Assembly (NCBI GenBank): GCA_900547975.1
Contig: URIX01000005.1
Span: 1-63,196, forward strand
Origin: an uncultured Eubacteriales bacterium
GTDB taxonomy: Bacteria > Bacillota > Clostridia > Christensenellales > CAG-917
Reading direction: 5' to 3'
Length of the DNA stretch: 63,196 nt
A program made the translations under genes and the position numbers. A model generated the notes under the pieces. That model worked only from the letters and a program-made list of their open reading frames with translations. It was not told the origin of the DNA and did not search any database. Positions 1-29,449 of this stretch are shown piece after piece (positions within the stretch are counted from its first letter, which is position 1; every line of letters starts with the position of its first letter).

Positions 1-290
1 AGGTATCGTCCTCTCATTATGCCACTCGTTCACGGGCGAAAAAAATCCACACTCGCCCGTTCACTTGTACTAATCGTCAAGTTCGGCGCTCATAGGCTCG
101 CCGCCTTGCGGCTCGTGTTCCGTCTTCAAAAAGGCAGAGTAGTTGTATAAGAACACCTTGAACGAGTGAGCGTTAAAAAAGTCCGCGATATAATCGCGGA
201 CGGCGGTTTTATTTCGTCTTCGAACGGGCAGATTCCGTGTAAGAGTAGTCTTCGAACAAGTTTTCGTTTCGGGTGCGGGTGTCCCGCCCT
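1..290 (+). repeat. Structured intergenic repeat, copy A (subfamily 1; 5' part cut by the window edge)
   Basis: nt 1-125 are roughly 93% identical to 45637-45761 (copy B). It carries hairpin ACGGGCGA (32-39) / TCGCCCGT (53-60), the conserved GTCAAG-TCGGCGCTC...CTCGCCGCCTTGCGGCTCG core, and a 3' hairpin GCGGG (275-279) / CCCGC (283-287). An ATTATTA-type AT microsatellite follows at 291-330. Confidence 0.7.
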
Positions 291-339
291 CAATTATTAA
301 TTATTAATTATTCATTATTAATTTTTTCCTACGGAAAAA

Positions 340-1395: not shown

Positions 1396-1806
1396 AAAAT
1401 GAATATAGCACTATTCTATATGCGCTGTCAACGAACGGCGAGGTAAGCGAGGAAAGAGAGAAAATCAGCGCGGATAGATATGCGAATTTTGCATAATAAA
1501 AGCAAAATTTCGCGAAAATCGAAAAAAGAAAAATTTGAGGCGACGAAAAATTTTTTCAATGATTCTAACCGTGCGAAAAACGCGGACAAACGACAGTAAA
1601 AATATGGAAAACAATGCGATAGAATGTCGAAAAACGCAAGATTTGTGCGTATACGGCGACGAAAACCCGAAAACGCGGCGAAACAGGAAAAATTTGCCGC
1701 AGTGACGGCGCAAAAGCGCAAAAATCGAGCAAATTCCCCTACAAGTTGTGCTTTGAGAGTCGCTCTACCACAAGGTATAGTTAACGGCATTCTAACAAGA
1801 TATGTA

Positions 1807-1835
1807 TTGACAAACGCGCGAAAAAAACGTATAAT
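1807..1835 (+). promoter_or_regulatory. Consensus sigma-A type promoter of the giant gene
   Basis: TTGACA (1807-1812), an exact 17-nt spacer, then TATAAT (1830-1835), about 65 nt upstream of the ATG at 1900. The leader contains a 7-bp hairpin CATATGC (1857-1863) / GCATATG (1879-1885) just before the SD GGAGGAG (1890-1896). Confidence 0.7.
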
Positions 1836-1899
1836 TGACCTGTATAATAATCTACACATATGCGCTACACGCGTAAAGGCATATGTTTCGGAGGAGATT

Positions 1900-1974
1900 A
1901 TGAGAATGAGAAAGTTATCGCTCGTATTGATGCTCGTGCTGATCAGCGTTATGCTGTTCGGCCTCGTGGCGTGC
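1900..1974 (+). other. Lipoprotein signal peptide and lipobox (L-V-A-C; Cys codon 1972-1974)
   Basis: Positively charged n-region (RMRK), an 18-residue hydrophobic core, then LVAC followed by NPKTGG. This matches the [LVI][ASTVI][GAS]C lipobox rule. Confidence 0.85.
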
Positions 1975-4900
1975 AATCCGAAAACCGGCGGGGACATCGA
2001 TGCTCCCGTCATTCCTACGCCGTCGCCGGACAATCCGGACATCGACAACGCCACGTATATCGGCGCGCAGGATTTCTGGAACGCTTTCAAGGCCGCCGCT
2101 CTTAACGAAGCGGGTGCGGAAAAAGACAAGCGTTACATAAGGGTTGACACGGCATTCGTGATGGGCTTTTCCAAAGATTCGTCCGATTCGCTTGTCGTTG
2201 CTCGCTTTGCAGGGAACATCGATACGCTCGATGATTCGAACAGCGAAATACTCGTTGAATTCCGCAAGTTGGCAACCGAAATAAACGGCAGAACCGTCGA
2301 TCAAGACACCATCTGTACGATGGCTAAAAACGGCGAAGGAACTCTGCTTTTCGGCGCGTATTATTACGAAGGCAAACTTGTTGCGGATATGCGCGGAATC
2401 AAGAAGGGCGACGGCGTTCACGTCGTTTACACCGACACGATCGACATGACAAAATTCGTGTCGAGATTCAAAGACGCACTCGAACAACTCGATCTTTCCT
2501 CTGTTTTGTACGACACTTTGATGGGCTATGACATCGGCGGACTCGTCAATAGCCTTATCAAAATCGATATCGCGCATTTGACGGTCGAGCAGTTGCTCGT
2601 CAACGTATTGTTCGGCGCAAGCAAGGGCACGTGCGTTGACTACGGCAACGGACATCAAGTGTTGCGTATGCCTTGCGACCTCGGACTTATCGTCAGCATA
2701 ATTCCGCTCGTTCAAGGTCTTATCCCCGAAAACATCATCGGACTCGTCAAGGACGTACTCGGTCTCGATTTGGGCAAACTCGGCGCGCTCGCCGGTATGG
2801 CTCTTTATGTGGAAGCCGACATTATGAACGGCGCGCTTCAAGGCACGACGTTCGACATCGACGTAAATCTCAACTCTTACGGCGTTGAGGGCGTCGAAGA
2901 AAAGTACGGCACGTTCCAGTCCGAATTCGGCATTAAACTCGGCTACGCGAAAGCAGACTTTGCGGGTGCCCCCGACCTCGACTTAGTCGGCAGTGAAGAA
3001 AAGCCGGGACTTCTCAAAAATCGCAACGAAAAGAACACCGCTCGTCAAGACGGTGAAAAATCCCTTTACGACGCCGTAAACGAAAGTGCGGAAAAATATT
3101 CTTTCCTCACTCTCGACGGCGCAATCACTCTCACTCTCAACTTCAACGAAAAGAAAGTGTCTATCGACAACGTGATAGGCTCTTTCGGCACTCTCATTTC
3201 AAATCTTCTCACAAAAAATCTCGACCCCGCAATGCTCGAAGCGCTCAAACCGTTGTTTGCAAAAGAAATAGATTTTGCCAGCGGCACGGTTAAACTCACA
3301 ATCAAACTTCAAGCAGACATCAACACCAGAGACGCAAAAAAGACAAGACTCGCAGCGGAAATTCTCGGCAGTAACGGCGCAAAACGCTTAACGGCTTACT
3401 ACACCGGCGAGAAAGAAGGAGTGTACATCGACGCAAGCGGCTTGCTCGGTTACAACGGAACGAAGTTCAAAATCGACGACATCAACGTCAATGAACTCTT
3501 GAACAGCCTTGTCGACAAAGTGTTTGAAACCATCAAAGGCGCAATCGACGGCCTCAAAGGCGGCGCAACCGCTCAAAACATTCAACAAGCGTTTGTAGAC
3601 AACGGCGAAATCGTCATTCAACACGGCGCGTATTCTGCGGCGGAAGGCGACGGCTCTGTCGACGTCTTGTCCCTCGTAAGTATGATTCTCGACCATATTA
3701 ACGTCAATATGGACGGAAATATCTTCAATATCAGGGACATAAGCGTAGATTTGTCGAGAGATATTCTCGACACAATCTTCTCGCTTGTGTTTACAGGCGA
3801 TAACGCAGGTGCGGACATCCCCATCACAGGCGCATTGCTCAAATACGTCAACAACGGCGCGCAACAAAACAAGAACCTCACTTTGAGTGCGGAACTCGGT
3901 GTTCGCGAATATAACGAAGCAAACACCGAATACAGCCTCGCGCCGCTCATCGGTCTTGCGCTCGGCGTTGACATTACCTTTGGTAAAATCAACAATTTGC
4001 CCGACTTCGAGGCAACGTTTGAAAAACTCGAGAGCGAACTTGACCAAAACGAAGGCGCATATCTTCCCATCCTCAAAAACGGCGCGTTGAACACGGATTT
4101 GCTTCACGTCAACGTGTCGACGGGGCTTACCCTCGACATCGAAACCCTCAAAGGCGAACTCGCAAAGATCGAAGTCAATATGCCCGAGAAAGAAATCGGC
4201 ACGATGTTCAAGGGTATTTTGCTCAAAGCGTTGATCGAACTCGGAAACATCGACGGCGGTCTTAAACTCGACATAAACGCCGACATCGACCTTACCGGCG
4301 GTCTCGATACGAGCGCGATCCTCGATTTGCTTTTGAAATCTTCCGCAAAGATTGCGATTTCAAAACAATCCGACAACGAAGAAGTGCTTGCGCTCTATTT
4401 GCAAGACGGTTGGGTGTATCTCAAAGCGGACCTTCTTTGCATAAGCGTTAAACAAATCAAACTTAATGTCAGAGAACTTATCGATATGCTCGGAAAGAGT
4501 TCGAACGATTCGTCGAGCAATCAGGCGCTCGTCGCAGATGAAAAAGAAGACGGCAAAGACGGAATGGACATCAATGCCGTTCTCGGCTTCGTGGCAGGTA
4601 TCATCGACGGATTCAAACTCGGCAATCACGCCCTCGAAGTCGTCCTTGTTTCCAACCTCTTTGAACAAGTCCTCGGACTTCTCAACATCGACGGCGTTAA
4701 GATTGAATTTGCAAGCACCGAATTCGACGGCGGAATCCGCATTGCTCTCAACGACGGACTCAATCTTCCCGAACTTCAACTCGGCGTGTTCGTGTCTTTG
4801 GGCAACAACGTCAACCTCGACTTGTCCATCAACGGTTTGTCCGCAGGTTTGAACGATAAAGCGAATGACTATTTGTTGAAAGACAATCGTCAAAGCGACG

Positions 4901-7900
4901 ATTTCACCGAAATTCTCGAATATCCCTTCCTCGGACTCGACCTCACGCTCGGTCTTAACGTCACGGCGGACCAAGGCGCGAGAGAACTCGTGTTCGGCGA
5001 AGGTAAGTACTGGCTCGATTCTAACGGACAGTACGTCGAAATCGAAAAAACGCCCGTTCCCGACGGATACACCGGCAAACTTTATTACAAGGATTCCGAC
5101 GGCATATATCAAGAAGAAAATATAACCAAAGCGACTCTCGCATTCGACGAACCGCTTAATCTCAACTACGAGTTGCGCATCGCGGGGCAACTCGACCTTT
5201 CGCCTATCGTCGAATACTTGCTCGGCGCGACCCAAATCAATACAAAGGGCAACGTCAGCGAGTTGATGATTGAACTTACGGGCAAAAAGACAAGCGACAT
5301 CGGCGGTCAAGCGACTGCCGAACGCAAAGTTTTGCTCGGACTTTATTACACGGGCGGTTCGCTCTATATCGACGCGAGCAACTTTGGTGTGGATAAGGTC
5401 AGAACGGACGTTGATCTCTATGAGATCATACTTGCATTGCTCGCAAAAGACTCGACCGTCGTTGTCAACGGCGCAAAGGGTACGGAAGCAATGACGGCGG
5501 AAGATAACGACCAAAACGACGCCGCTGCGAGAAAGGCGCTTGCGCTCGATATTATCGCAACGCTTTCTTCCGACAACGTTAAGTTGCAAATCGCAAAGGG
5601 CTTGACCGACATCCTTTATCAACTCATCGGAATCGACGCAAGCGACATCACTGCTTGGGCGCAAATCGCTTGGGCAAACGTAAAGGATAAATTCGACAAC
5701 AAACCCGTCCGTATCGCACTTGACGTCAACAACGACGCAGGTCAACAAATCGGCGGTGCGGAAATCTATATCGGCACGACCGTAAAAGGAGAAAACGGCG
5801 AAACTCTCAGCCCGCTCAAACTCGAAATCGGCGGCGACGCTGTCGAACCTATCAAAATTGTACGCGACGGACAAAAAATGCAAGAAATGGCGTCCTACGT
5901 CCAAAGCGAAGGCAACGTGTTCGGGGATATAGACTTGTTCAACGACTACGGCGACGTCACCATTCCCAGCATTTACGCCGAAATTCAAGGCACGTTCACG
6001 GTCGGCGCGCTTCAAGGCAACAAGTCTTGGACGGTCGGCGAATGGATTGCGACCTTCCTTGACGACAGCAATCCCGAACTCAATTCGTTCATAAGACAAC
6101 TTCTTCTCACCTACAAAGTGCCTGTCGAAGCGGGCGCAAACATCGGATTCCGCATTGCGCTCAACGCACATCTCAATCCCGACGTTCCCGTTGACCTCAC
6201 TCAAAACGTAGTGTTCAAGAAGTATGAAAATTCAAAACTCGCAGACCTCGCAAAATATGTCGAAGTCTACAAACTCAACGGCACGAAATACGTCCTTCTC
6301 ACCGACGAGGAACGCACGACGTTCGACGGCGACGTATACCTCAAACAATACGTTGCGGGCGGCATTGCGCTCGCCGAAGTGACAGACCTCAATTACAGAG
6401 GCGAAGGCTACGTCCTCGTTGACGGCAACTACGTCAAAATCAAAGTCACGGACGAAAATCAAGAACAATACGCAAACGACAAAATTTACACCGCGGCAAG
6501 TTTGCTCGACATCGCGTACATCGCGTCTCACAGCGACGTCGCAATCGAAATCTACAACGAGAAAATAACTCTTGTCGACAAGATGTCCAATGCGGAAAAA
6601 CTCGAACACGTTATCCTCGCGTTGCGTTTGCAAAGCACGGGTGAAAATGCGCAAGGTCAAGCGGTAAGCACGGTTTACCTCGATTTGAGCAACGACTTCC
6701 ACCTTGCTTTGACCAACATCGATCTCGGCGCATTGCTCGGCGGATTGATTAAGGGCGGCGACAAAGACGGGAAAAACGGCACGGCAACGGCGAGCGCGGA
6801 CGGCGGAATCGACCTTATGGGTATTCTCGGCAAGGTGCTCGGCGGTATCATCGGCTATATCGGCGTAGACACCGAAGGTTTGCAAATCAACTTTGCGGAA
6901 GCACTCGTCGCAACCCTCGTGCAAATGCTCGCAGGCAAGCAAGTAGACCCCGAAAAGTTCATCAAACTCAATTCGGACAGAAGTTATCTCGCATTTGCGT
7001 GGAAAAACGATTATAAACTCGAACTCAACCTTCAAATCGACCCCGTATACGTCGGATTCGAACTCAGTTCCGTCAAACTCGCACTCGGCAAAAAGGGCGG
7101 TGTTTTGCCCGAAGATTTCGACCCGAACGTATACACGACGGCTGAAAATCTCAGCACGCTTTCTCTCAATGTAGATCTCGGGCTCGACTTGCAACTCAAA
7201 GGACAAGACGAGCAAGTACGACTTGAAAAATACCTCGATTTGTTCATTGCGGATCTTGGTATAAAACTGGGAATCGATATGTTCGACGATATCGAATATA
7301 ATATCGGATTGAGCCTCGGCGCAAATCTTGCACTCAACGAGCCGAACGATAGCAATATTGTTCTTGAAGTTAAAAATAAAATAACAAATAAGAATATATT
7401 AGCGTTTTACGTCGAAGGTCAGAACATTTATTTGGACTTCGGAAGCCTTGGACGTCAACCCGTTTATCTCGAAGGAACAAACCTTTGCGACGAGATTTGC
7501 AAGTATGTTATCGGCTTGCTCGGCAACCTCGATTCAATCGTTAAAAACGGTGCGTCCGTCGCAGCGGACGAAGTCGTCGCAAACAGCGCGGACGAGCAAA
7601 TGCAACTCGTTCTCGACATCACGGACGGCAAACTCGGCGCACTCGTTATGCAAAACGTCCTCGTAGGACTTATTGCTGCACTCACGTCGAAAGACGGCAG
7701 TACGGATATTGCGAACATCATCGAAAAACTCGACCTCGACATTTCCGTCGGCGTTGACTTGCAACTCGACCCGTCTATCGCAATAGACGTTAACGTTGAC
7801 AGCAAACTCATCGCACTCGGCGTGAGCGTTGAAAACATCGACGTTGCAACCGGAACGAATAGCAACGCATATGCGGCAATCCGCGAAAAAGCGCAAAAGG

Positions 7901-10900
7901 GTATCAGAGGCGACGATAAGTTCGTCCTTCTCACAAACGACGAAAAGGCAACTTACGAGGGCAAGAGATACAACAAAGACGGCGACAAGTTCGTCGAAGC
8001 GGAAAACGGCGATTACAGAGGTTACTACACCGAGATGTCCAATGCGCACATCATCGAAGTCGACCTCAGTTTGATCGTTGATTACTATGCAAGCGCAACT
8101 TACACTCTCGTCACCGACCAAAGAGCACTCGAAACACAATCGCCGCTCGATAGATATTCGTACAGCAAGAACGAGCAAAGATTCGTGCAAGACCCCAACG
8201 GCACTTACGTCCGCGAAGGTTTTGCGTTCGACAAATTGCTCGATTTCGTGCTCAATATGGACGGTTTGCAAAGCATTCTTGCAACGATGCTTCCGCAAAT
8301 CCGTATCAACACCGACAATGAGGAAGTCAGATTCGACGTGCTAAAAGACAAGTTCAGCGTCGGCGATTTACTCAAACGTTTGGGACTCAACCTCGTGCTT
8401 TCCGACAAGATGGACGACGGCTTCAAACTCGACATAAAGGCAAGACTTAATCTCCAAAAGATAGGTATGGAAGACATGTCGAAGATTGACTGGAAGAATC
8501 TCAATCTTGACATCGACACCATTCTCAAAGGCTTGGAAGCGTACGTCGGAATCGACTTCGATTACGAACACGAAGGCACCAACGCCAAAATCGGCATATA
8601 TCTCGAAGACGGCATAGTGTTTGTCGATATGGACGGCATTGGCGGTCCGCGCGTACAAGTGGGCCTTATCGACTTGCTTGAAAAACTCGGCATTGCGCTC
8701 GGCACAAGCAGTTCGAACAGCGAAGCAAGCACGGCGGCGGATACGACAGACGGCTCCGACGCGACAGATTCGGACAAGACAAACGACAAGGTCAGCGTCG
8801 GTCAAATCCTCAATATGATCGTTTCCAAGATCGTACTTGCAGGCAAGCCGTGGATAATCGGCGGCAACACCAATAGAATTGACCAACTCGGCGTATTCGT
8901 GCGCGCAAACTTCATCAACGACTTGTTCTCGATGTTGTTAAAGACGGCAATAAATTCCGAAAACACGGTTGTGGACGAATCTCAAAGCGGTTTGTTCATT
9001 TATCCGCAAACAGACAAGTTTGCATACTGTGGCGTTGACGAAGCACTCGCTTTGCAACTCAAACTCGCTCTTGCAAACAAGAAAGACCCGATCGATCGCG
9101 AAACGGGCGAACTTTCTTCAAAATCTCAATACCTTATCGACCTCAATCTCGGACTTGACGCCAAAGTCGGACTTGTCAGCGTAGATACCAACTATCAACC
9201 GCTTCTCGACAACGACGAAAAACTCGAATTCATCTCGCTTGACGACTACATCGAAAACATCGTCAAACTCTCGGGCGGATTCCTTGGCGAAAATTATCAG
9301 AGAGAAACGAGTCTCAAAGACAATGCAATCTACTATGCCTTTGACAAAGACGACAACGGCGAATACTTGCTCAAGACGGGTATGTACCGCAAGCCCAACT
9401 TCACGGTTGACGCAAACGGCACGTACGTTCTCGGCGAAGACGGCGAATACAGACTCATAAACGACGGCGAAACTCTGCCCGAAGGCACGAAGCGTTACGC
9501 AAAAGAAGACCTCACCGGCGTTCAAATGTATTCTCGCTCTTACGCAACCGTAAAAACGGGCGAGGACGGCAAGCAATACGCATACACCGTCAAATATGAC
9601 GTCGATCCCGACGGCGTATATGTCTATGATGCCGAAAACGACGTCTACGTCAACAAGAACGACGCTTCCGCACCCGAAAGCAACACGTTCTATTCGAGAG
9701 TCGATAATCCGATTACCGTCACCGAAAAGGATGCAGACGGCAAAGAAACGACTCGCCACGCTCTTGCAAGCGAAGTCAAACTCTACAACAAGTGCGGGAA
9801 GACCGCATATCAAGATCAAAACGTTTCTTTGAGCGTAAGCGGCTTGATTTACTTCAATTCCGCAAGCGCGGAAGTCGTCAATGCGGGCGGCTTGCTTCCT
9901 AACGCGTTCCGCGATATGATCATCAACTTGCAAACGATGGCGGCATTCAACGCGGGCGTCGGTTTGAGAGTCTCCGCAAACATTGACCTTGCGGCACTCG
10001 ATTTGCAAGGACTTGCATCCGGCGGCACGTTCGGCGACTTTATCAATAACAGCGATTTGAGCAAAGTGGAACTCGCAATCGAATTCCTCGAAGTTGACGA
10101 CAAGGGCTACTTTGTAAAATACGACACGGCAAATGGCACGGACAACGGCAACGAAAAAGTGCTCGGCGGTATGTATTTGAGCGGCGGTACGTTCTATCTC
10201 GACCTCACGGGCATGGTTTCAACTGCCGAAAACTACTCCAAGATCGAAAACTTTGTTGATTTTGCAAAGAAAGTAATTGAGAAATTCAACAAGAAAGACG
10301 ACAAAGAAAACGGCGCGCAAACGGCAAGCGACGAAGCGGAAACTCGTTCGAGCCAACGCGACGCGGTTTTGTTGCTCGCATACAGCGACGCTCAATTCCA
10401 AATTCAAATCACAAAAGCGTTGATCGCTTTCGTGCTTAAAATGTTTATGCCCGATCTCGGCTCCCTCGAAGAAGTGTTTGACGTGTTCAACATCTCGTTG
10501 GGCGTTGATATCGGTCAACCCGTTTACAAGAGCGTGAAAGAATTAGCAGCGACCGATCCGGATCTGTATGCGAAATTCCAAAACGAGTATAAGGGCGACA
10601 GATATCGCAAGTACGAAACCGAAGATTTAAGCCAAAAAGCGGACACCGACACTTACTACGTCGCAGGCAACGCATACTATCTTGCAAGCACGACAAAAGT
10701 TTACGAAGTGACGGTTGATGGCGAGAATGTCACCCCCGTCGACGGCGAGAGGTTGAGATTTGCGGACGGCAACTTGGAAGCGGGCAAGACCTACGCAGTG
10801 CTCGAAAACGGCGTGTACGTAGTGATTGCAAACAAAGTTCAAGGCAAGTACGTCCATCCAAACGCAAACTACTATGCGAAAGTGGAAGGAAATACCGACC

Positions 10901-13900
10901 CCGTAAGTTTGCGCAGTTACAGAATGTACAGAAGAACGGACGGCGTTGAAAGCGTCACCGATACGTACATCGAAGGCGACACCTATATCCGCTACAACGG
11001 CGAAGAAAGACAAATCGAAGAATTGAGATCTCGTTTGTTCGGCTACGTCAAGGACGAAAACGGCGATTATTACAGAACGATCGACCTCTACAACAAAATA
11101 AGCGATTACTACATCGGACTCGACGCTGCAATCGGTTGCGTGAATATGGGTCTCAAACTCGGCGGAATCGAATTAGGTTTCGGCGCAGGCGAGGAATTGC
11201 TCCCGGCATACATCCGCGACGGCAAAGCGCACTCCTGTTTCGACAACGGCAAGGAAATCGAGTACACCGACGAAACCAAGAATTCGTACACCTTCGAAGA
11301 TATCCCGACAAATATGTTCTACGACACCATCATCACGGTGGGCTTCTCGGTTGAACTCGAACTCGGTGTTACGGAAGGCAAACTCGACTTCGGTAAGATT
11401 TTGAGCAGTATAATCGGCGACCTCACGGGCGTCGTGGTCGAAATGCCCTCAACCGCGAAGGGTTATTCTTCCGCACACTTCAGACTCGACGTGTCGCTTA
11501 TGGTTGACATCTACGACCTCACCAAGTCCGAACTCAAAATCGAACTCATCAACATGACCGAAACGGGTTACGAGAGTTTGTGGCTTGGCGCATACTACGT
11601 CAACAACACGATTTACGTCAACCTCAAAGACGCGTTCAACATTCAAAAGTTCGCAATCGGCGGTCTTAACATCGCGGAAATTCTCAAAGACTACATCATC
11701 GACTTCGATTCGGATGACGAATACTTTGTTGCGGGCGGCTCGCAAACGGCTTCCACGAGCGAAGCGTTTGTGGCAAGCGGCGCACAATCGAGCGCAGTCG
11801 ACCTCAGCGACAAAGAACTCGCTCTTTCGATACTCATCAACAGAGATTTGCTCACTTTGAAACTCGGCGACAAACTCTTTGACACCATCCTCGAATACAT
11901 CCCCGAAGATTTGCTCGGATTCGACATCAAAGACTTGTTCTATCAAGAAGTCAACGGCGGCTTGCAAGTCGAAATCAACACGTCCGACAGCATCAACCTT
12001 TCCGTTGACGTCGCGCTCGGTCTCGACGGCGACAGATACAACGCAGATTCCGAGTATGTTAAATTAACGGACGAAACAGCCAAAGCAGAACAAAACGAAA
12101 GCCTTGCAAACAAGGTCAACGGTTCTGCAAATTACTATGTCTTTAAGCAAAGCGACACAGGTCACTATGTCAAGAGCGGCAACTCTGTTCGCGCAATCAC
12201 GTCCAAAGAAGAAAACGACGTTAAAGCAGGCGACCGCTATGCCAAGTACAAAGTCCAAACGGACGAAGGCGTAAATGTTCCGTATCTTGTCGAGGTGCTC
12301 GACAACGGAAAGGGCGACGGCAGCGAAGTGCTCTCCAAGACTCATCTTCCGATGCTCGCAGTCGGCGAAGAATCGATTGTCATTTACAAGCACGTTGCGG
12401 GCGCGGTTGCAAACAAGTCCTACGTCGGCGACGGCGGCAAGTATGATATGACGCTCGAACTCGGACTTGCAATCAAGAATCTCGACGTTGCGTTCACCAA
12501 CTCTCGCACATACGTCCTCAGCGGCGACGAACTTGCAGAGTACACCAATATGGACGACGTAGACCGCTTTACGCTCAGCGAAACCATCGACATTACGACG
12601 CAATTCAAGAGCGGCACGGGCAATGACATCGATTTGAGCGCGGTGCTTCAAGCGTTCTTCCCGAGCCTCACCGCAGAGCAACTTCTCGTCATCAAGGCGC
12701 AAGCGGACGACGGCGGCGACGTAAATCGTTCCTTGCAACTTGTTTTGGACGTAGATATTCAAGTTGCGGCATTGCTTAACTTTATGCGTACCGAACTTGT
12801 CAAATACACCGACGACGACGATCAATTCGACGGTGATATGGACTTGTTCAAGGTTATCGAGTTGCTCAAAAAAGTGTTTGAAAAACTCAAAAAGAACACC
12901 GATAGTTTGACAAAACTCATCGCAGACATCGCAAGTTACGTCAACCTCAGCGTAAGACTTCAAACGAAGGGCGGCAACGATTCCGAATATCACGACATGC
13001 TCGGCATTTATATGGTGGGCGGCACGTTCGAGTTGCTCTCGGAAGAAGAAAAGACCAACGTCACGAGCGAGCATTACGTAGACCCGAGCGAGAGATTCGA
13101 CCACTACTTCGAAACGAAGAACGGCAGTTACTATCTCGACGAAACGACGGGCGAATACAACTACATAACTTCGGATGCGTTTGCGGGAACGAGATATTCC
13201 TACGATTCGAGTTATTGCTACAAGAACGAAAAGGGCAACTACAAGCGCGTAAACGGCGGCTTGTTCGTTGACCTCAGTTACTTCAACATTCCGTCCTTGC
13301 GCGTCGACGCAAACGAAATCAGAAAACTCGTGAGCGGCATCATTGCGCAAAGTTCGACGGAAGCAATGGCGGCGGCGGACGACACCCCCGATGACGGCGA
13401 GAAAGAAAAGATTTCGTTCCCGCTTGTCAAAGACGACAAGATACTCGGATATATCAGAACGTTTGCATACGGTTTGCAAATCACGTCGAGATACATCAAG
13501 GTGCTTGCAAACGCAGACTATATCAACAGCATTCTCTCTCTCGTAATGGGCGAGAACGCGATCCAATTCGACGACAGTAAGTTCGTCAACAAACCCAATG
13601 TCACGCTTTACACGGACAACACGAGATACTCTTACGAGAATGCGCAAGACGTTATCAACGAATTCAAGACCAAAGTAACGGGTCTCGACAAATCGTCGGA
13701 CGAGTACAAGAAGTACGCAAAAGAACTCGAAAGCACTCTCACCAAGTCCAAGTATTTGTTCGATATCGTTTCGTATACGGGCGAGGGCAATGAGAACAAA
13801 GGAATTTACTACAAAGACAGCGACGGCGCATACGTCCAAAAGTCCGAATTGTCCACCGTCGAGCGCAAAGCATACGACGAACAAGTCAAAGTGGGCAAAG

Positions 13901-16900
13901 CAAGTTACTATGACGTAAAGAAAGTCAACGTTTACATCAAACTTGCAGAAAAAGTATATGTTCTCTATGCAGACGCGACGCAAACGCAACTTAACAAGTG
14001 CGAAAAGGTTGCCGAACTTCAAAACAACTATTTGGTCAGAGTTCCGAAACTCTACTACTATGCGTCCGAAAATGCAGAAGAACCCGTAGCGGTCAACTTC
14101 CGATACAGTGTCGTCAAACCGCTTCAAGCGCGCAACGAATTCCTCTCGGTCAACCTCTATTTGTGGAATCACAAGTTGTCGGTTGCAATCAACGCACCGT
14201 CCGTGGGCGTAACCAAGTTCCAATACATCACAGGACAAGAAGCGATTGACGACAATTACAGGTTGGTAAAAGCGGACGAAGTACTCGAAGAAGGCACGAA
14301 ACGCTACAACAGGAATGACGACGGAACATACACCGAAGCAGAAAACGGAAAATATGTTGCGCAAGAAAAGCCTAAGTATGCAATCAAGAGCGTTGCGGCA
14401 GGCGCACGTTATATCAACACCGACGAAGACATCTACACCAGTGTGGACAAAGAATCCGACGGTTTGAGCAACTGGGAATTCGATTACTACACCGGCGGCA
14501 AATTCGATGTGCAAAAGTACTCGGATGCTGAAAACTACGCAGGTCCTCGTTACTACGAGTATAAAGGCGAACTCATAGCAATCACCAAAGACTCGTTGTT
14601 CGTCAAGAACGGCAATCAATACGTTCAAGCGGCTCTTGACAAGACTGCGGAAACACCGACTACAAGTTGGGCTTTATTCCCCGACTTCATCGCGGAAATC
14701 GAGAACAACGGTGCGGAATACTATGTCGAGAACACGGCGAAGACCGCGTATGTGCGCGTACAAAGAACATTTATCTATAAGAAGTACACATACAATACCG
14801 AAAAGAAAGTCCTTCTTCCCGCAACCGATGATTGCGCTCCCAAAGACTACTTCATCAAGGTTCAACAGAACAGTTCGGTTGAAAAACCCGACTTCTCGAA
14901 GCCCGAATATGCGAAATACGCATACAAGGAGTATGTCGACAGCGATAACCTCTACTACATCTCTCTTGCATTGAGAGGCAGTCTGTTCATTCAAGCGGGC
15001 AAGATTTACTTCGACTATGCAACGTACAAGGGAGTGTACAACTCTGTCGTCAACAAGATAACCGATGAAAATTTGTATCAAGAAGTTCCGAACAGCGTTC
15101 TTGAGAAGATTGCATACAAGAAATTCCAAGGCGACTACGTCAGAGTTACCGATACAACGGAAATCGCACAACTCAAAAACAAAGGTTTGTATGTTTTGGT
15201 CAACGGTGAACTCGACGAGAAGTACAGCGGCGCGAACGAAGTGCTCGGCGACGTTTTGGGCAACTTGCTCGGCGCAATGACCGGCAAATTCCAAATCGCG
15301 GAAGATATGACGTTCAACATCTACTTCTCGCTCAGATTGAATCTCGGCTTCAAACTCTACATTCTTCCGTCGTTCAGCATCGACATTCGCGACCTTGACG
15401 TTGCAATCGACGTTTGGGGCGAACAAAACGACTTGCTCGACGACGGCACGGGCAAAAACTACGTCACGAGCAAAGACAGAGACGAAAACAACTACAAAGT
15501 CAAGTTGCTCGACGGCACGAAGCCTCATATTCTCGGAATCTACTACGACAACGACAAAGACACCGGCAAAGCGGGTCTTTACATCGACGCGGAAGCACTG
15601 CTCGGCAAAGAAGCAAAACTCTTTGTGGATATGAGCGAGTACTCTCTCGAAGAAGTGATTACGGGGCTTGTGGCAGGCATCGGCAAAGGCTCTTCCGCAC
15701 AAGACGCGTCCGTTGCTTCCGATGATGTGACGAATCTCAATCCCGACAAACAAAGTGCAGATACGACGAGTTTGTTTGTCAACATATTCACCAACGCGCT
15801 CGCACTCAACGTGACGTCGGGCTTTGCAAAAGTTCTTATCAAAGAACTTATGCCCGACAACGCAAGCATTGCGGATATGTTGCCCAACCTCAAAGTTTAT
15901 CTCAAACAAAATCTCAGACCGTACGACATTACGATTGGCGCAATTCTCTTCAACGAGAAGGGCGATGTTCCCGTGTTCAATCTCGGGCTTAACATTCAAG
16001 GTTTGAACGGCGTAGACGGCGAGTCCTCGTCCATCGAGTTTGGCAGAAAAGAAGACATTTTGAAAACGCAACAAGGCTCCAACGCCATCTTCTACTATGC
16101 GAACTTCTACCGCGACAACGGCAACACCGATTACAGCAACTACTACGGCAAGAACTACAACGCAAAAGACTACGTCAAACTCAAACGCGACGAAGCGACA
16201 GGTTACGATTATATCGAGAACGCAGACGGCTCGAAGGGCGCTCTCTACACGGGCACAGACGCGGACGGCAAAACGTTTGCAGGCCCCGAAGACAGATATA
16301 TGAAGGCTGCGCCCGTTATGAGCGAAGTGCTCGCTTCAAGACAGATGGCGTTCAAGGGCGACCTCTACACCGACGTCGACGGCGTGTATATGCTCGTTTA
16401 CAAACGCCTCAACGACATCGCAGGCAACAACAACCTCGACGAAGACACGTACAGAGAGTACAGAAACCTTGTCAACACCAACCAATTTGCGACCTACACG
16501 GGCACGCTCTACGTTGTCGACAGCAACGGCAACTTCGTCAAGACGGACAAAGACACGCTCAAGGGCTTCACGGGCGAGGGCAATTTGCAATACGCTCTTG
16601 CAAGCAACTACACGAGCGCAACCGTAAGCGAAAAGAGCAAAGCGGTTGTCTACAACGGACAAACCTATTATCCGATTGACACCAACGGCAACGGATACAC
16701 CGATATGAGTGAAGCGGACACGTTCGCAAGGAACTATCCGAGTGCTAAGGTTTACAAGCAAGTCACCGATTTCACCAACTACACCAAAGCGTTGGCACTC
16801 AATCTCGGCGATTTGCTCGGCGGCGGCACATTTGATGTTGCAAGCGTGCTTGCGGGACTCGAAAGCGTCGAACTCGGAATGAGTCTTGACATCAAGGCGA

Positions 16901-19900
16901 CTCTCGACGATGTCATCAACTGGACATATCAATTCACGAGATTTATCGACGATCCGCAAATCAGTCAATATCTCTACTTTATAGCAACATCGCTTCAAGC
17001 CAACAAGGAATTCCAAAGCCTTATCGGTTTGAGCGTCGATCTCAAAGCGTATCTCAAACTCGCAAATCTCGTCAAGATGATTGCGGGCGACAAGAGCGTT
17101 GGCATTTTGCAAGCCCTCGAAGGCGCGAAGATTTATCTCGAATTGACCTACGAAACCAACTTCCACGGCAACCAGAAGCCGCAAGCGTTCTTGTGGGTGG
17201 AAATCAGAGGCGGCAAACTTTATCTCAATCTCGATATGAGCGAGATCGGCGACATCGTCGGTTGGGGCGACTTCTTCTCATACGGCGTTGTCGACGGACT
17301 CGATCTTTCGAGCATACTCGGCAGCAGTTCGACAACGGCAAGCGCACAAGCCTTTACGGCGGCCGATGACGAGGAAGCCAACACAGGTTTGATTCCGGCA
17401 AATATATGGAGCGTTCTCAATGTTGTTCTCGGCAGATTGCTCATCGCAAACGACTTCATCACGGTCGGACTCAACGAAACTCTTATCGCGGACCTCATCG
17501 GTATGCTCGCGGACAGCGACAGCGCAGTGCTTCAAGGCATAAGCGAGTTCTTGCCCAAACTTCACACGACCGATACGAAGGACACCAGCGGTATCACCAT
17601 CAACTTCTACGGCAACTCGCCCAGCATCGACATCAACCTCGGCTTCAAGGTTGGCACGCTCTATTACGAAACCGTAAACAACTTCAACGCGATGTACGGC
17701 AACGACGGCAAGTACTTCAAGGGAAGCAACTGGTCGGGCACAACGTTCAAGCAAGAAACGAGCGGCGAGTACACTGTAGGCAATGGCGCGGATAACGACA
17801 ACACATACGTTCTCGTATCCACCGACGATTACGCACTCGTTACGTACGCATATCCTGCTTGGGACGGCGACACTTACGACTACGACGCGACAGCGAACAA
17901 GTTCACGAAGCACACCGAAAGCGGCACGAAGGGCGCATACCTCAAACAAGGCGACTTCGCAATCGCAATTTCGCTCGGCAAACTTTATGCGAAAGTGAAC
18001 AAAGACTTCTCTGTCGACAAAGACGAGAAATTTGCCGATAGAAATGACGACAAGACAATCAAGTACGTTTATGTCGAATCCGCAAACGGCGAATACGTCA
18101 AGAATGCGGACGGAACGTATCGTCTTGCAACGGCTGCCGACATCGAAGAAGCGCATTACGCAAAACAAGCGTCATACGGCAACTATGTGAAGTTGCAAAA
18201 CGCAACGGCGCATCTTGAAATGTCGATTGAGATTTCCTTGTACGGAAGCGGCAAAGCGGCGGGCAAAGCCAACGAAATCGATTTGAGCGAAATTCTCGAT
18301 ATGATAATGGGGCTCATCAATCCCGGCAGCGCAATCAGCGGTTCTCAACTCAAACTCAACATCGTCAACGAATTCGGCAACGACCAAGGCGCGTTCCTCA
18401 CGCTCGACCTCGTTGCGAATATCGACGTTGAAACGTACAAAGTCGAACTCGGCCTCGAACTCAACAAGAAGACGGCAAGTATGACGACCGCAAAGACGTT
18501 GCTCGGCGTTTACCTCATCGAAAACGCAGTATATGTCGACCTCAGCGGTATACTCGGCGAAACGGCAAAGATTGCCGTGACCGATCTCAACCTTGACGGT
18601 TTGCTCGAAGGCGTACTCGGCAAGTTCTTGGGTCAAGAAGAATCCACCGACGCGTCGGGTGCAAGCGTTGCAAGCAAAGAAGACATCGGCACGATCGAAA
18701 AGAACAAAGATCATTTGAGAGAGTATGCATACTTCATGATCAACGTTACGCCGCAAAAACTCTTGTTGCAACTCAACGCAGACCTCGTCAACGCAATCTA
18801 CAAGAAGATTATGGCGATTCGCGGACTCGAACAAAAAGATTTGATTCCCGACATCGGCGATTTGCTTGTCAGAGTGGACGCTTCCGAGTCAGGTGCAAAG
18901 AAGTACGTCAAGATGACGGATGAAGAAAAGGCAAAACACAACGGCAAAACGTACAAGAAAGTCGGCGTAAGATACGTCGAAGTGACCGACGGAACGAAAG
19001 GCGATTATAAGCAAGACGGCAACAAGACTACAATCAGTCTCAATTTGAGATTCAGCGACGGCTTGTACTTCTGCCTCGACATTCCTGCGGGAAGCATAAC
19101 AAAAGACATAAGTCAAAGCGTTGCGAGCGTCTTTGGACTTTCGGTTGCCGAAAAGGATTTCTATAAATCTATTTCCGACAAAGAGTTGAGTTCGTATGAC
19201 GGAACAAGATATGCCAAAAAATCGGACGGAACGTACGAAACGGCTTCCGACTACGTTGACGGAGTGACATATTATGCTCCTATGGTTAAGCGTATCGACG
19301 ACAAGGAATTGTCAACGTATAGCGGCGACAAATTCGTCAAGAACGCAAACGGCAACAACGTGCTCAGTTCGCTTGCGATAAGCGAGGCAACGTACTATGC
19401 GCAATCGACGACGTACACGAAACTCGTGTTGAAGGACGGCAAACTCTATGACGGCGCAACCGAATTCCAAGGCGCGGTGTATGTCAAGCGTTACGGCGCA
19501 TATGAACTTTCTGCGGGCGCAAATTATGTTGCGACAACGAACTATTATAAACAAGACGTGACATACGTCGCACTTACCGCAAGAGACGGTATGCTCTACA
19601 ACGGAACGGAATTGTTCAAGGGCGACAAAGTGTACGTCGCAAAGACCGAAACCGCCGAAAACGGAGAAACGACGACGAGTTACGAACTCTCGACGAGATA
19701 CACTTTCTATCCGTATTATGCTCTCAAAAAAGAGCAGGTGCCGAGAGACTATATCGAAATTCTCTCTCTCGACCTCGAATCGCTTGTGAACGGTACGGGT
19801 ACGTTTGACATTTCGTCGCTCAATCTGCCCACAATCGGGCTCAAAGCGTCGCTCAACTTCACAATGACGTCGAAGAACCTCAAACCCGGACAAACCGGCT

Positions 19901-22900
19901 ATGACGAATCTCTCGCAGGCTGGACAAAGAATCTTCTTGCAAACTTGCTCAGCGGTCAGGCTATCTTCGGACAGTTCGGCACGCTCACTTGGCAAGACGA
20001 GAATACCCTTACCGACGGCGGAAAGGTCTATGACGGCAAAGTGTACGTCAAGAATGCAAAAGACGAATACGTTCTCTACACAGAAAAGACGTATGCGAAA
20101 GGCACAAAATACTTCAAGTATACTCTTGCGCCCATCAACATCACGATGGCAAACGAGATCAATCTCACCATCGATATCGCGGCGAACATTAATCTCGCGC
20201 CGATTCTCGCATACGGCATCGGCGGCATTTTGTACAGCGATATTGCGGTGGATATTATGCTCGGCAAACCCGTCGGCACAAAACTTCTCAGTCTCTACTA
20301 TCTCGGCTCTTCCAGACTTATGAAGAAAGACGGCGTAAACTGGGAACTCGGCATGGCAACAAGCGGCGCATATACGTCCAACGAAATCTATTCCGACGCC
20401 CTCTACGTTGACGCAAGCGGTTTGGGTCTTGGAAAGATCAAGTTCCAAGGCATTGCAGGCTTGCTCGGCGTAACTCCGAGTTACGGAGCCAAGACCGCGT
20501 CGGGCGCAAGCGTAAGCGCAGACGCAACGACGTCAGACGCGAACACCGTAGGTGCAAACGCGGCGGCAAGCAATGCGCTTTATTTGCAAATCGACATCCA
20601 AAACGGACGTCTCGGCGTGTCGTTTAACAATGCGTTCATCACAACGCTTATCGGAATGCTCGGACTCGACCTCGGCGACATCGAACTTCCGCCCATCAAG
20701 TCGGTCAAACTTGACGTGAACCTCGGTGCAAAGGGTCTCGATTCAATCAACCTCAATGCCTTGCTTGACAGCGTCGGCACAAGTGCGAACGTCAAGATCG
20801 ACAACGTCGAACTCGGCTTCGGCGAGAGCATGGTTGAATCCGCAAACCTCATCGAACAAGTGAAGACGGGCTACACCGGTTTGACCTTCTCGAAGACGTC
20901 GGGCATTATGAACCTCATCCAAAACGCCATTGACAGTTTGAAACCCGGTCTTTCCATCAACATCCAGAACAAAGTATGGCAGTTGACTCAAGCAAGAAAG
21001 GTCGCGACGTTGTATCAGGATTCCAGCATCACGCTCACAGGAAAGAAAATTCTTACATCAACCAAAATAGACGGTAGTAGTTCTTCACCCGAAAAATACA
21101 ATATTCATCTTGACTTAGCGAGCAACCGAACATCTATCGGACTCAAAGCGATTTTGGGAGGGAACAATATCTTTATCACCGACCTCTCGCTTCCGAGTGG
21201 TTTGGTAGGTAATATCGCCGGACTTGTTTCCGCACTCAAATGTCTCGATTTGGGCAGCATGATGGGCAAATCTCCGCTTCTTGCGCTTGTGAACGGCACG
21301 GACGGTGATGACGCAACCTACGAATATCCGTCCGCAAAGACGGCAGCCGAAACTTCAACGACTGCGGCAAGCGGGTGGAACAAAGACAAAACATCATACA
21401 CCTATCCGCTCAATCTTGAGAATCTCATCAAGAGCGTTGAAGTCAACCTGTTCAACGACAACGGATACTGGCCATATTTCGACAAAGCAACGGCGGTGTC
21501 CAACGGCGCAGGCAAGATTTCCGTCAAGGTCAAGCTCAACAAAGATTCGTACAACGAACTCATAATTATGGTCACGTCCATACTTATGGGCTTGATGAAA
21601 GACAAAATCAACAGTGACAACGGCGAGCCGTACTTCGGCGACGTACAAAAGGCGCGCGACGGCAAGACGAGCATAACCGGTAAAGGTCTGTCCTCTTATT
21701 TGATTGACGGTATCGGCGACACCAACGAAATCACCAAGTTCTACGACGGACTTGACGCGTTGGTCAAGAGAGGCGCGACTACGCAAGAGAAAGTCAACTA
21801 TGTCGAGCCGTTTGCAAGGTCATTGCCCGTAACGTTGACGAAGTGGGCGTTGTTGTTCGCACTCGACGCGGCAAACATATCGCTCGGTTACGGTACAATC
21901 CAAAATTTGGCGAGCGAGGTCATCGAGGGATTGAACTTCCTCATCGGCGGAATTCTTCCCATTCCGTTTGCAAGCGGTGAAATCGATCCTTCCGTCAATA
22001 TCTACGTCGACCTCAATCCGACGGCAAGCGAATACGGCTGCACCGGCGATCAAGTCGTAAAACCCGGTATTCAAGCCATTGAAATTATGGTCAATGCCGA
22101 GAAGAACGGCACCGGAACGGCAATGAAGTACAACAAAGCGCAAACCACCACCAAGAGCGAAATGAATCGTATGGCAAACGAAGGTGGCGCGGTTGCGGCA
22201 GGCTCGGCAGACAGCACGACAAACGAATTAAGCAACGCTTGGGACTTCTTTATGCTTCGCATAACGCCGTACAGCATAGTCGATACGTCAGCGCAGAAGT
22301 TCAACACCGGTATGCTGTACTTCGACGATGCGGAAAGCGCAGAAAAGGTGACAAACGAAGTCGCCGCACCCACCGAAATCGTAATCGACGATCCGGCAAC
22401 AAGATCGGGCAATGCAGTGAAGTCGGACGGTTCGTCGGTGCCTGTCACGCTTCGCGACAGCGCGTTCCTCGACGCAACGGTATTCCCGCAATACGCAAAC
22501 GTCAAATTCCCTGTCTATCTCAGCGGCAAGCAAATGCAGTCCTATGATTCTTCGGGCGATTACAAAGACGCAGTAGGCACACAAATCGTTTGGGATGCGG
22601 CAACCGTCGATTTGACCGCTGCAACTTCCGAAGACACAAACGGCAGACGTCTTGCAGGTTATGTGTACGGCTACGCGCTCAACGTCGTGCTTTACGCAAT
22701 CCCCGTCTACGTCACCAACGATAAGGAAGCGCAAACGCAATCCATCAAGGGATACTACAACATAAACGGCAAGTATACCGAAAAGGCACTGGGAATCGAC
22801 ATCGACACCAACAGTTCCAAGTATATGGCGGAACTTCCCGATCTCGTGAGAATCCCGTTCAGAACGGGCGGCAAGTACACGTTCGCAACCTATCTCAAGG

Positions 22901-25900
22901 ATTCTGCAGGCAATATGGCATATGCGGTCATCAATCCGATAAGCGGCGCACCGTCCGAAAACGGCTATCAAATCCTCGTCCAACCCACTCAAGAGGAAAT
23001 CGATAAAGGCGCGACGGCAAATCTCAACAAAGACGGCAACAAGTGTTTGTTGATGCCCGCATATATCGCAGGTCTTAAGACTGTCAAGGATAAAGACGGA
23101 AACGATGTTTATCAAACGGTCAAGATCAAGAACGAAGACGGCACGGAAGTCGAATACTACGTGCTTGACCGCAACAAATTGCCGAAGGGCAAACAATTCC
23201 CCGCAGGCACGATCGACTGGAATACGGACGACTTCAAGTACGATTGGCAAGGTTCGACAGAGTGGACGACGGGTGCGGGCAGCAACGTAGTCAAAGTCGG
23301 ATTCACCTATCAATGGGGTCTCGGCAAAGCGGTTACGGACACGATTTCGTTGACTGCGAAGAACTACAAGATTTCAAGACTCACGTCAATGTCCAACAAC
23401 GAGAGCGGCACGGTAACGCAAAACTTCAAGAGCGAGCGCGACAGTAATGGCAACTACACGACGATTCTCGAACTCAAAGCGATGGATATCGACGCAAGTA
23501 TGCAAAACCTCGTGACCTACCTCGGCGGATTCCGCTTAGTCAACGGCAAGTTCATCAACGAAAGTTCGATGACGGGCTTCGACGTCGAGTGGGATACGAC
23601 GGAACTCGCAAAAGCGCTTAACGCAATCACCACCAAAGATTCGAGCGGCAACGACGTCGTAAACTATTACAAGGGTCTTGACGTAACGGTAAAAGCAAAG
23701 GTCGGCGGCAAGAGATTCAGCATCTTCACGTCGGTCACGAAGAATCTCGTTTCGACGGACAAGAGCGGCTTTGTGGGCAAGAGCGAGAGTTTCGCAGGCA
23801 AGTTCGCGCAAGAAGTCAATGTCAGAATCGTAGTCAAACCGTATGTGTTCGCTTCTATGGCAAACGCGCTCGTATTCGATCAGTATCGTTATGAAACGAT
23901 AACCGCAGCCTCGTTCGGCAACTCATTCCGAATCAACGTCAAAGACGCAAGCGGAAACACGCGAGTCGAAAACTTGACGGTCGGCAACGGACTCAGCGTC
24001 GAAGCGCCGTTCATCAAAGCGGGCGAAACCTATCTCAACGCATACAATAATGCGGTGCACAAACTCACGTCCGACGAAATCACATACGAGGGATACAGCA
24101 ATCAAAGAGCATATCCGCTCTATGCGAAACTCGTCATCGGCACTGAATACAGCGGCAAGCAAGAGGTTTACGTTCCCATCGAAGTGAACGCGGTCAAACC
24201 CTCTGCGGTGACGATAAGCGTCGAACACGGCAACACTCTCAATCCGAAGTGGTACGAGAGATACGACGAGTTCAACGTTTCCGTCGGCAAGAACACGTAC
24301 ACGATGTTCCCCGACTGGACGACGGTGCAGTATTACACCAACGCCGCTTGCACGAAACTCAAATCGCAACAAAACATCTTTGACGGCGGTACGATTTACG
24401 CGCAAGTAGAAGCGTACGCAACTGCGGACGGCACGAAAGACGGCACGAAACTCGCTCTTGTCAACACAGGCAAGAAGGACGAGAGTGGCAAGCCTGTCTA
24501 TTCGGCGCAAAAGATAACGCTCAGACTCAACGTCGAGCAACAAACCATACAATCCGTAAACTTCTTCTACGACGAAACGATTGGCGACGTCGCGGCATAT
24601 TTGAGAAAATATGCAAGCGACGAAGCGAAACTCGCCGAACTCGAAGCAAAACTTGCGGACATCGACAACTACACCGGTAGCGTATATCAACAAACGCACG
24701 AAAAGGACGGCACTTGGTACGGCATTGACCCGATCAACTTTGCAACCAACCCGAGCGATTACTTCAAGACGAGTGATTGGGGCGACGCAAAGGGTGGCAC
24801 GCCTGTCAAGGTCAACTTGGTCAACGGAGAATCCTACATTGCATTCGTCAGAGCGTTTGACACTGTCGTTTCGGGCAAAGACGTCAAAGGCACGGGCAAT
24901 ACGCAAACCTGCTATATGACGATAGGCAACAACAAAGTTTCCTTCTACGTCAACATTCCGAGTTATGAATTTGTCGGCGGCGCAATGAGCGACGCGGAAA
25001 GCAAACTCACGTATGTAGACGGCAAAGTCGCAGGCACGAAAGACGATGCGAAAGACGATACGTTGAAACTCGCATACAACGTGTTCGACAAATGGAAGTT
25101 GCCGAGCACGGCGACCGTACAAACCGCACAAGGCGTCGGCGACACAACCGTTGACGTCAAGTGGGTTGATTACGCCGCGCCGAACAAGGACGAAGTGAAG
25201 TCCGACGCAGACGGCAAGTTGTACGTCGAGCGTAAGTACTTCTTCTTCGACGGACTCACGATGCGTTATCCGAGTGCGGACGCGTTCACGGCAAAGATTT
25301 ATCTTGAAAACTTCAACACGGAAGTGAAAGAAATCGTTCCCGACGGAATGAGCCTCAAATACGACGTATTCGACAAGTTCGAGTTCGCTCGCACCGCAAC
25401 CGTCTATATGAATGACGGAACGAAGCACGAAAACGTGCCTATCCGCTGGGAAAGCACGTCAATGCCGACTGCGGATGAAATCGAACAAGGCAGTTTCACT
25501 CGCAAGATTCGCATTCTCGGCGCATACGTCGAGGGTCAGGACATCTACAGCGACTACGTCGTGACCGTCAACAATGACTTCAAGATTGACACGCTCTTGA
25601 ACGAATTCAAGACGGAAATCACCGGCGACTACAAGGCAGGCAACTTTGCAATCGACGTTGCAAAAGACAACTTCTATCAAGGCTTGCCCAAGAGCGCAAA
25701 CGTCAAGGTCGGCACAAAGACGATCCCCGTCACGCTTGCGTGGAGCGACAACTACACCGCAGAGAGCGGCTTCAACGGCAATATGACTCTCACGATAACT
25801 TCCAAGGACGGCGACAACGTCGTGCTCGAAAGTGACGTGAACGTCGCCGTAAAAGTCGAATCCGCAGGTATCACGGGTCTTGCGAAGGGACAAAAGTACG

Positions 25901-29270: not shown

Positions 29271-29449
29271 TGCAAAGGGTTTTTTGAAAAATTCGAATGC
29301 GGCATATAGGCATAATAATAAGGCGTATCGTCATAATCGAGCGGTAATAAAATAAACGAAAAACGAGCAGAAAATCAACAAAATATGCCGATTTTTTGTC
29401 AAGTTCGGTTTGCGTTTTGCAAACATAGCGGCGCAAGTACAAATTTTTA

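Follow-up and report, generated by a model that had tools for sequence, protein, structure and literature searches.

The closest described counterparts of the protein reported here are Gram-positive surface fibres of the Ebh and SasG type, proteins thought of as bridge-like conduits for hydrophobic cargo, and the giant proteins of uncultivated bacteria. Adhesin repeats usually vary in copy number, and some Mollicutes adhesins are endoproteolytically processed; the repeating β-groove units of conduit proteins begin or end at a long loop. Clostridia giants in a metagenomic survey have RCC1, Listeria-Bacteroides repeat, YG-repeat, dockerin and LRR domains (West-Roberts et al., bioRxiv 10.1101/2023.11.21.568195). 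Here we analysed a 63,196-nucleotide (nt) stretch of DNA from an uncultured Eubacteriales bacterium (contig URIX01000005.1; the whole stretch is hereafter called the window) that contains a giant gene, a single uninterrupted open reading frame (ORF) on the + strand (1624..29199; 9,191 codons). The predicted product carries 14 strongly diverged tandem copies of a large module that matches no family in Pfam-A, NCBIfam or the PDB and is previously undescribed. Pfam-A and NCBIfam gave nothing for amino acids (aa) 1-6400 (Pfam at E ≤ 1), as expected from a preliminary description of the window, which held that gene annotation does not reveal the modules; they gave no match for the modules of relatives either, and a literature search found no description of the family.

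The preliminary description had noted, at 2341-20680 within this ORF, a signature of three parts (a Tyr-rich motif (a), an acidic linker and a hydrophobic motif (c)) recurring 14 times with a period of 250-800 aa. All 16 quoted strings of motif (a) occur once each in the ORF translation and belong to 14 modules, two of which are split by inserts; the strings start 3-12 nt downstream of the positions first assigned to them (e.g., 2344 vs. 2341 and 15532 vs. 15520). The four quoted linkers and four quoted examples of motif (c) are likewise present, displaced by 6-15 nt, and the measured period is 244-759 aa. In 13 of the 14 copies the parts follow the order (a), acidic linker, (c); the exception is the first copy (aa 241), which lacks a linker. 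Copies 1 and 2 had both been thought to have no delimitable linker; this is true of copy 1 and not of copy 2 (aa 589), in which we find GAYSAAEGDG.

Such a signature might arise as a chance or compositional effect in a long protein that is rich in L, D, G and Y and has acidic low-complexity patches. Pairwise identity between module copies is about 15-25%, the linkers are compositionally biased and the instances had been chosen by eye, all of which would favour this explanation. However, each left-out copy scores 12.5-45.2 bits against a hidden Markov model (HMM) of the other 13 copies, while on 101 decoys shuffled within 40-aa windows (local composition kept) the full 14-copy HMM reaches 5.4 bits at most. 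In the 9,191-aa translation the full HMM matches exactly those 14 sites and none else. When HMM iteration is started from one copy alone (aa 5587-5786), without recourse to the list chosen by eye, it recovers 10 of the 14 copies (domain E ≤ 0.01). The six-residue core [LIVFA][YF][LIV][DN][LAFM][STGKEDLN] occurs 13 times; in 1,000 global shuffles it averages 1.1 occurrences and never exceeds 6, so that the motif is more frequent than in composition-shuffled versions of the protein.

Self-comparison gives the same result. BLASTP of 200-aa tiles against the protein itself yields off-diagonal links between junctions (e.g., 876-982/2263-2382 and 4632-4756/5622-5744), and when the 14 module profiles are compared all against all by hhalign, 32 of the 91 pairs reach ≥90% probability and 60 reach ≥50%, with modules 2-14 forming one connected network. 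Family alignments of modules 5 and 6 align over 174 columns (96.7% probability, E 4e-10). A profile of the module also finds it in 158 other protein clusters (see below). The leave-one-out, decoy, iteration, hhalign and family-search results refute the chance reading, which we regard as extremely unlikely; the repeat is real, far beyond chance, and descent of the copies from one another by internal duplication is, on these alignments, very highly probable.

The modules are listed below, all on the + strand; aa positions follow the numbering of ORF 1624..29199, bits are leave-one-out scores and percentages are hhalign probabilities. For modules 2-14 the basis also includes a match to the full HMM.

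Module 1, 2164..2850, + strand (aa 181-409): diverged, without acidic linker; 14.5 bits; best probability 52%.
Module 2, 3295..3933, + strand (aa 558-770): motif (a) LTAYYTGEKEGVYIDAS; linker motif GAYSAAEGD; 94-97% to modules 4, 6, 9 and 13.
Module 3, 4246..4872, + strand (aa 875-1083): 28.4 bits; 98% to module 7.
Module 4, 5152..5811, + strand (aa 1177-1396): 42.8 bits; hhalign.
Module 5, 6490..7110, + strand (aa 1623-1829): 17.5 bits; 247 aa to the next module, listed as the shortest period; hhalign to module 6, AlphaFold.
Module 6, 7231..7893, + strand (aa 1870-2090): 25.5 bits; hhalign, AlphaFold.
Module 7, 8410..9057, + strand (aa 2263-2478): 45.1 bits; hhalign.
Module 8, 9979..10593, + strand (aa 2786-2990): 42.4 bits; hhalign.
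Module 9, 11464..12063, + strand (aa 3281-3480): 30.4 bits; hhalign.
Module 10, 13075..13710, + strand (aa 3818-4029): 15.4 bits; hhalign.
Module 11, 15358..16017, + strand (aa 4579-4798): 33.2 bits; hhalign.
Module 12, 17026..17670, + strand (aa 5135-5349): 21.3 bits; hhalign.
Module 13, 18382..18981, + strand (aa 5587-5786): 45.2 bits; hhalign; seed of the single-copy iteration.
Module 14, 20218..20877, + strand (aa 6199-6418): 34.9 bits; hhalign.

Aligned with MAFFT, the 14 junctions share one pattern: two strands precede a hairpin (LGhYY..G.hYhDhS), another strand and a helix come next, and beyond the acidic loop lie a second hairpin and a hydrophobic helix. The consensus of the motif (a) hairpin is lLGIYY.dG.LYIDLS and that of the hydrophobic helix, which follows the second hairpin, is i.l.I.I..g.L.L.Lt.aLI..LLglL; over 574 module instances the most conserved positions are Y46, Y53 and D55. 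The sequence between the signatures had been called unalignable, yet homology spans about 170-210 residues per copy, i.e., nearly the whole core of the shortest module (247 aa), and the ancestral module would be some 200-250 residues long. We also compared the hairpin-helix unit before the linker with the one after it, and rejected a smaller internal repeat (hhalign, 2.4% probability).

The linkers are acidic and of low complexity, as first described, and they also hold a conserved short motif, G-A-[SQ]-[VT]-A-[AS]-[DE]-[DE], in 13 of the 14 modules (e.g., GASVAADE at 7549-7572, aa 1976-1983; EASTAADT; DASVASDD). It is seen as GA.AaAAdD in the consensus of the 574 family instances, and linkers are otherwise the least conserved part of the module between orthologues. 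The motif could be a processing, modification or docking site. Its retention in loops that are disordered and variable, together with its position after a Leu-rich helix and its small residues in an A-x-A-like arrangement, would suit a polyprotein-like precursor that is cut at each acidic loop into about 14 pieces, which then remain associated or form a surface layer. Against such a precursor, no protease gene adjoins the giant gene in the window or in three inspected neighbourhoods, the helices before the motif are too weakly hydrophobic for signal-peptide h-regions, and a docking strand or modification site would explain the motif equally well; we consider cleavage of this kind very unlikely.

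Variation in the module period comes from Tyr/Lys/Asp/Gly-rich insertions in particular loops (e.g., ...YYKDSDGIYQEE... and ...KRYNKDGDKFVEAENGDYRGYY...). The motif (a) hairpin is split in module 10 by a 75-aa Tyr-rich insert (LGIYMVGGTF ... GGLFVDLSYF) and in module 14 by another insert (LSLYYLGSS ... SDALYVDAS). Six Tyr-rich inserts searched against Pfam at E ≤ 10 gave scattered, unrelated weak matches alone, and known aromatic hairpin repeats (choline-binding/CW_binding, YG, RHS/YD, MORN) found no Pfam match in them. Inserts differ between orthologues: in module 3 of the orthologue P0002 there is a ~200-aa extra tandem block of the NGTHWFDVATGKYIAK... type, just after motif (c), corresponding to aa ~1020-1025 (nt ~4690) in the window. 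This extra tandem-repeat block shows the module loops to be insertion hot spots. A second repeat of ~50 aa, (K)YV.LTDEE....G..Y.K..D..YVE...G.Y, occurs within the Tyr-rich inserts between modules, with three clear copies by iterated HMM (75-96 bits; decoy maximum 5.1):

6283-6447 (aa 1554-1608), copy of the ~50-aa insert repeat.
7909-8067 (aa 2096-2148), copy of the ~50-aa insert repeat.
18892-19047 (aa 5757-5808), copy of the ~50-aa insert repeat.

The other inserts are filled with looser, hairpin-like [DN]G.Y motifs. The ~50-aa repeat, too, has no Pfam match.

Searches with the junction/module profile against 1.84 billion representative proteins (E ≤ 1e-3) extended the scan of the giant protein, with its 14 sites, to a small family of only 158 clusters elsewhere. 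Full-length members of 5.6-7.9 kaa each have 12-16 matched stretches, most of them with 13-16 modules, and the gene loci of P0005 and P0016 have 14 module copies each. P0049, a termite-gut-type relative, has five. Directly upstream of the P0049 gene (locus L029, 443-5983), a gene of 1,846 aa has a lipobox signal and two module copies; since two adjacent genes carry the module at this locus, it can be spread over neighbouring genes, and other copy numbers occur. Relatives are labelled “hypothetical protein”, and the cluster of P0049 is labelled carboxypeptidase-regulatory-like.

A scan of species-representative genomes recovered 28 orthologous loci with 30-93% identity over the first 1,167 aa, most of them with a reading frame open to the end of the examined DNA. 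Their hosts are named Christensenella sp. UBA..., Firmicutes bacterium CAG:238, CAG:475, or uncultured Clostridia, and the samples came from humans, mice and the rumen; one locus lies on a complete chromosome. Modules 1-14 of the window protein map 1:1, in order, onto modules 1-14 of P0005, P0008, P0012 and P0015, with one weak exception (module 4 in P0012), and in P0013 and P0016 the module order is partly still visible. As the four collinear relatives share about 25-30% identity with the window protein (alignment A4), the 14-fold duplication predates the divergence of these lineages. The hhalign homology and the 1:1 collinearity with four relatives thus support the earlier proposal of an ancient internal duplication of a large structural module, and the 14-copy array was fixed thereafter.

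The 5' end of the ORF contains signals for a later start, read directly from the nucleotides:

1807..1835, + strand, putative sigma-A-type promoter: TTGACA (1807-1812), 17-nt spacer, TATAAT (1830-1835).
1890..1902, + strand, ribosome-binding site (RBS) GGAGGAG (1890-1896) and likely true start codon ATG (1900-1902).
1900..1974, + strand, predicted lipoprotein signal peptide MRMRKLSLVLMLVLISVMLFGLVAC (aa 93-117 in ORF numbering), lipobox L-V-A-C, with the Cys at aa 117.

The promoter lies inside ORF 1624..29199, upstream of the start codon used by orthologues. Because promoter and RBS precede this ATG and orthologues carry a signal peptide at or near their start, the true start is almost certainly at nt 1900, giving a protein of 9,099 rather than 9,191 aa, and the first 92 codons (1624-1899) are probably not translated. 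P0002 and P0004 begin directly with the signal peptide, P0003 has 13 residues ahead of it, and a signal peptide of the form MR/MK...C is found near the start of the reading frame in 26 of the 28 orthologous loci; in orthologues it reads MRMRKLSLVL...LVAC. Many long ORFs with TTG or GTG starts lie antisense to the gene (1915-26889, - strand; up to 854 aa, e.g., 12064-14628) and are most simply read as putative shadow ORFs of coding-strand codon usage, not genes.

The signal peptide fits the pattern for signal peptidase II lipoproteins: its n-region is positively charged, its h-region is hydrophobic and its lipobox conforms to [LVI][ASTVI][GAS]C. A lipobox signal is kept in 28 of the 38 family members longer than 3,000 aa. 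It is the sole strongly hydrophobic 19-mer of the giant protein (Kyte-Doolittle mean 2.86); the same scan found no second transmembrane-grade segment. Internal hydrophobic motifs were considered as transmembrane helices and rejected, with Kyte-Doolittle means ≤1.8 and polar residues inside the segments. The giant protein, which is acidic and Cys-poor, is predicted to be an exported lipoprotein lipidated at Cys117.

Structure prediction gave a rough picture of the module. An AlphaFold model of aa 93-1259 from a four-sequence alignment has a predicted local distance difference test score (pLDDT) of 34 and is usable as a rough guide to secondary structure alone. Modules 5 and 6 (aa 1600-2100), modelled from a 23-sequence family alignment, reach pLDDT 58.6 and a predicted template modelling score (pTM) of 0.47, with 154 residues at 70-90. 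In this medium-confidence model each module has about 11 strands and 3 helices, and the order is common to both: long strands, hairpin (a), strand, helix, disordered linker, helix, hairpin (c), helix and three long strands. The helix before the linker would be amphipathic and the one after it short, and the last three strands would close the module as a β-meander. The low-confidence model gives modules 2 and 3 the same order of elements. This points to an α/β module in which the hydrophobic face of a long antiparallel sheet would be covered by helices. Foldseek searches with the two-module model found no PDB match at E ≤ 1e-3, with template modelling scores (TM-scores) ≤0.2, and no match in BFVD. 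The top Foldseek matches (E about 1e-3), MHC-, CD1- and MR1-type platforms, were rejected at TM-scores of 0.08-0.18 and a root-mean-square deviation of about 20 Å. An hmmsearch of the PDB with alignment A1 gave 0 matches at E ≤ 10, and the best PDB match with alignment A4 (E 0.72) is an unrelated protein.

Several of these features recall proteins that form a bridge-like conduit for lipids or other hydrophobic cargo, such as TamB, YhdP and AsmA in bacteria and VPS13 and ATG2 in eukaryotes. The N-terminus is predicted to be membrane-anchored, many long amphipathic β-strands would have one hydrophobic face, a long disordered loop could mark the start or end of each repeat by analogy with β-groove units, and a copy number fixed at about 14 would suit a defined span. 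However, Pfam gave no AsmA or TamB match (none in aa 1-6400 at the threshold given above), hhalign of module profiles A1 and A4 against E. coli TamB gave probabilities <0.1%, and Foldseek of the two-module model retrieved no TamB, VPS13 or other groove protein at the TM-scores just given. The three predicted helices per module would also shield the hydrophobic face of the sheet, the anchor is a lipobox rather than a transmembrane helix, and in hosts named Clostridia, Christensenella or Firmicutes no outer membrane target would be expected. A conduit of this known type is therefore improbable in our view, to about the same degree as the cleaved precursor discussed above.

The region after the last module has a different character:

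20878..29199, + strand, module-free C-terminal stretch of 2,773 aa in which T, S, V and N are abundant.

Here the immunoglobulin (Ig)-like family Big_4 (PF07532) matches at E 1.8e-4 and 21.4 bits (gathering score 22.1 bits), and Big_4 is also the top weak match in the C-terminal regions of P0092 (16.6 bits) and P0005 (20.7 bits); Pfam found no Ig-like match in the 14 modules. At least one pair of adjacent ~95-aa repeats (aa 7801-7900 and 7903-7977; 25024-25554) is 35% identical and shows the Big_4-like Ig pattern ...P.TATV...G....V.V.W..... An LPXTG signal was not found: the C-terminus ends ...ISNLEKIEWNPRG, without a hydrophobic tail, and the sole LPxxx-like string of the last 200 aa, LPTSA, falls among the final 80 residues with nothing hydrophobic after it.

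The giant gene is flanked by the following genes:

340-1395, - strand, HGSNAT_cat/Acyl_transf_3 membrane acyltransferase, divergently transcribed, just upstream of the giant gene.
29410-30621, SPFH (Band_7_1) protein with double zinc ribbons at the C-terminus, immediately downstream of the giant gene.
30645-31718, second zinc-ribbon protein, after the SPFH gene.

The conserved neighbourhood consists of the giant gene, the SPFH-plus-zinc-ribbon protein, the second zinc-ribbon protein, and then metG and tatD. At two distant orthologous loci (L031 and L032) the SPFH/zinc-ribbon pair also follows the giant gene, there separated by a Mem_trans gene. At L031 the 6 kb upstream of the giant gene include a homologue of the acyltransferase, beside GH20 and PIG-L genes. 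This conservation suggests vertical inheritance and points to a vertically inherited core gene. The SPFH/zinc-ribbon pair, which we take to resemble the YdjI/YdjG membrane-stress module of B. subtilis, may be a candidate link to the giant protein, functional or syntenic alone.

On balance we think it probable, though far from certain, that the protein is a giant, lipid-anchored surface fibre or adhesin, built on a new stalk module, in a lineage of gut Clostridia with small genomes; we infer its module fold, extended shape, surface location and adhesive role. The N-terminal lipid-modified Cys would tether the protein to the outer face of the cytoplasmic membrane. After it, a Pro-rich tether would lead into the 14 tandem, strongly diverged modules, and the array could form an elongated stalk bearing Tyr-rich hairpin inserts and acidic loops. 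This stalk would extend through the wall and hold the Ig-like C-terminal ~2,770 aa at a distance from the cytoplasmic membrane, so that the C-terminal region would be the distal, binding end.

Several observations weigh against such a fibre. A role in binding lipids or interacting with membranes would also be compatible with the hydrophobic helices and with strands that are hydrophobic on one side, and neither the PDB nor BFVD offered, by Foldseek, a structural neighbour supporting a stalk-like shape. The first model has low confidence (pLDDT 34) and the second medium confidence, with motif (c) predicted differently in modules 5 and 6. The Big_4 matches in all three members fall below the gathering score of 22.1 bits. 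Module 1 is the weakest-supported copy, with poor support in profile comparison. The modules might instead constitute a new machine, either a Gram-positive conduit for hydrophobic cargo or a polyprotein cut at the G-A-S-V-A-A-D-E loops, whose about 14 subunits could build an envelope structure peculiar to this gut lineage with its small genomes; we hold this to be unlikely.

Whichever role they serve, about 6,300 unannotated residues resolve into 14 units of one definable domain, and the alignment of 574 module instances could seed a new Pfam family. The giant gene takes up about 27 kb in a lineage in which one complete genome measures only 1.65 Mb, and 28 species of gut bacteria, from humans, mice, the rumen and elsewhere, have kept both gene and neighbourhood. 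It is therefore probably central to how uncultured Christensenellales-like organisms interact with their surroundings. A number fixed at 14 copies, with 1:1 orthology, is unusual and suggests that length or position-specific roles matter. Two-module constructs (e.g., aa 1600-2100) are suitable structural targets for a module without PDB or BFVD relative.

Compared with known systems, the surface-fibre reading has its nearest counterparts in Gram-positive fibres of the Ebh and SasG type. Like these, the giant protein is very long, predicted to be exported, acidic and Cys-poor, combines tandem modules with putative Ig-like domains, and is encoded as one polypeptide by a giant chromosomal gene. 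Unlike typical adhesin repeats, its module is much larger (200-250 aa core), far more diverged and without a Pfam or PDB family, and distant relatives keep its copy number (about 14). The predicted anchor is an N-terminal lipobox, in contrast to LPXTG-anchored Gram-positive adhesins. Recurrent weak Big_4 matches in the C-terminal third, and in two relatives, recall Big_4 (PF07532) arrays. With AsmA-like proteins, TamB, YhdP and VPS13 the protein shares a predicted N-terminal membrane anchor, great length, a repetitive, β-rich build with amphipathic strands, and a loop per repeat; it differs from them in its lipoprotein signal, the predicted helices of each module, the Ig-like tail and the Gram-positive-type names of its hosts, and no sequence, profile or Foldseek match links them to the module.

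Like the metagenomic giants, the protein is very large and mostly unannotated, comes from an uncultivated bacterium and needs analysis by subregions (West-Roberts et al., bioRxiv 10.1101/2023.11.21.568195). Unlike the Clostridia giants of that survey, the window protein was found to have no RCC1, Listeria-Bacteroides repeat, YG-repeat, dockerin or LRR domain; it also lacks multiple transmembrane segments and any Pfam match to a secA-type helicase domain. Giant repetitive surface proteins are a known kind of molecule, and what sets this one apart is its module, which is new to the searched libraries, unusually large, diverged and fixed at 14 copies.

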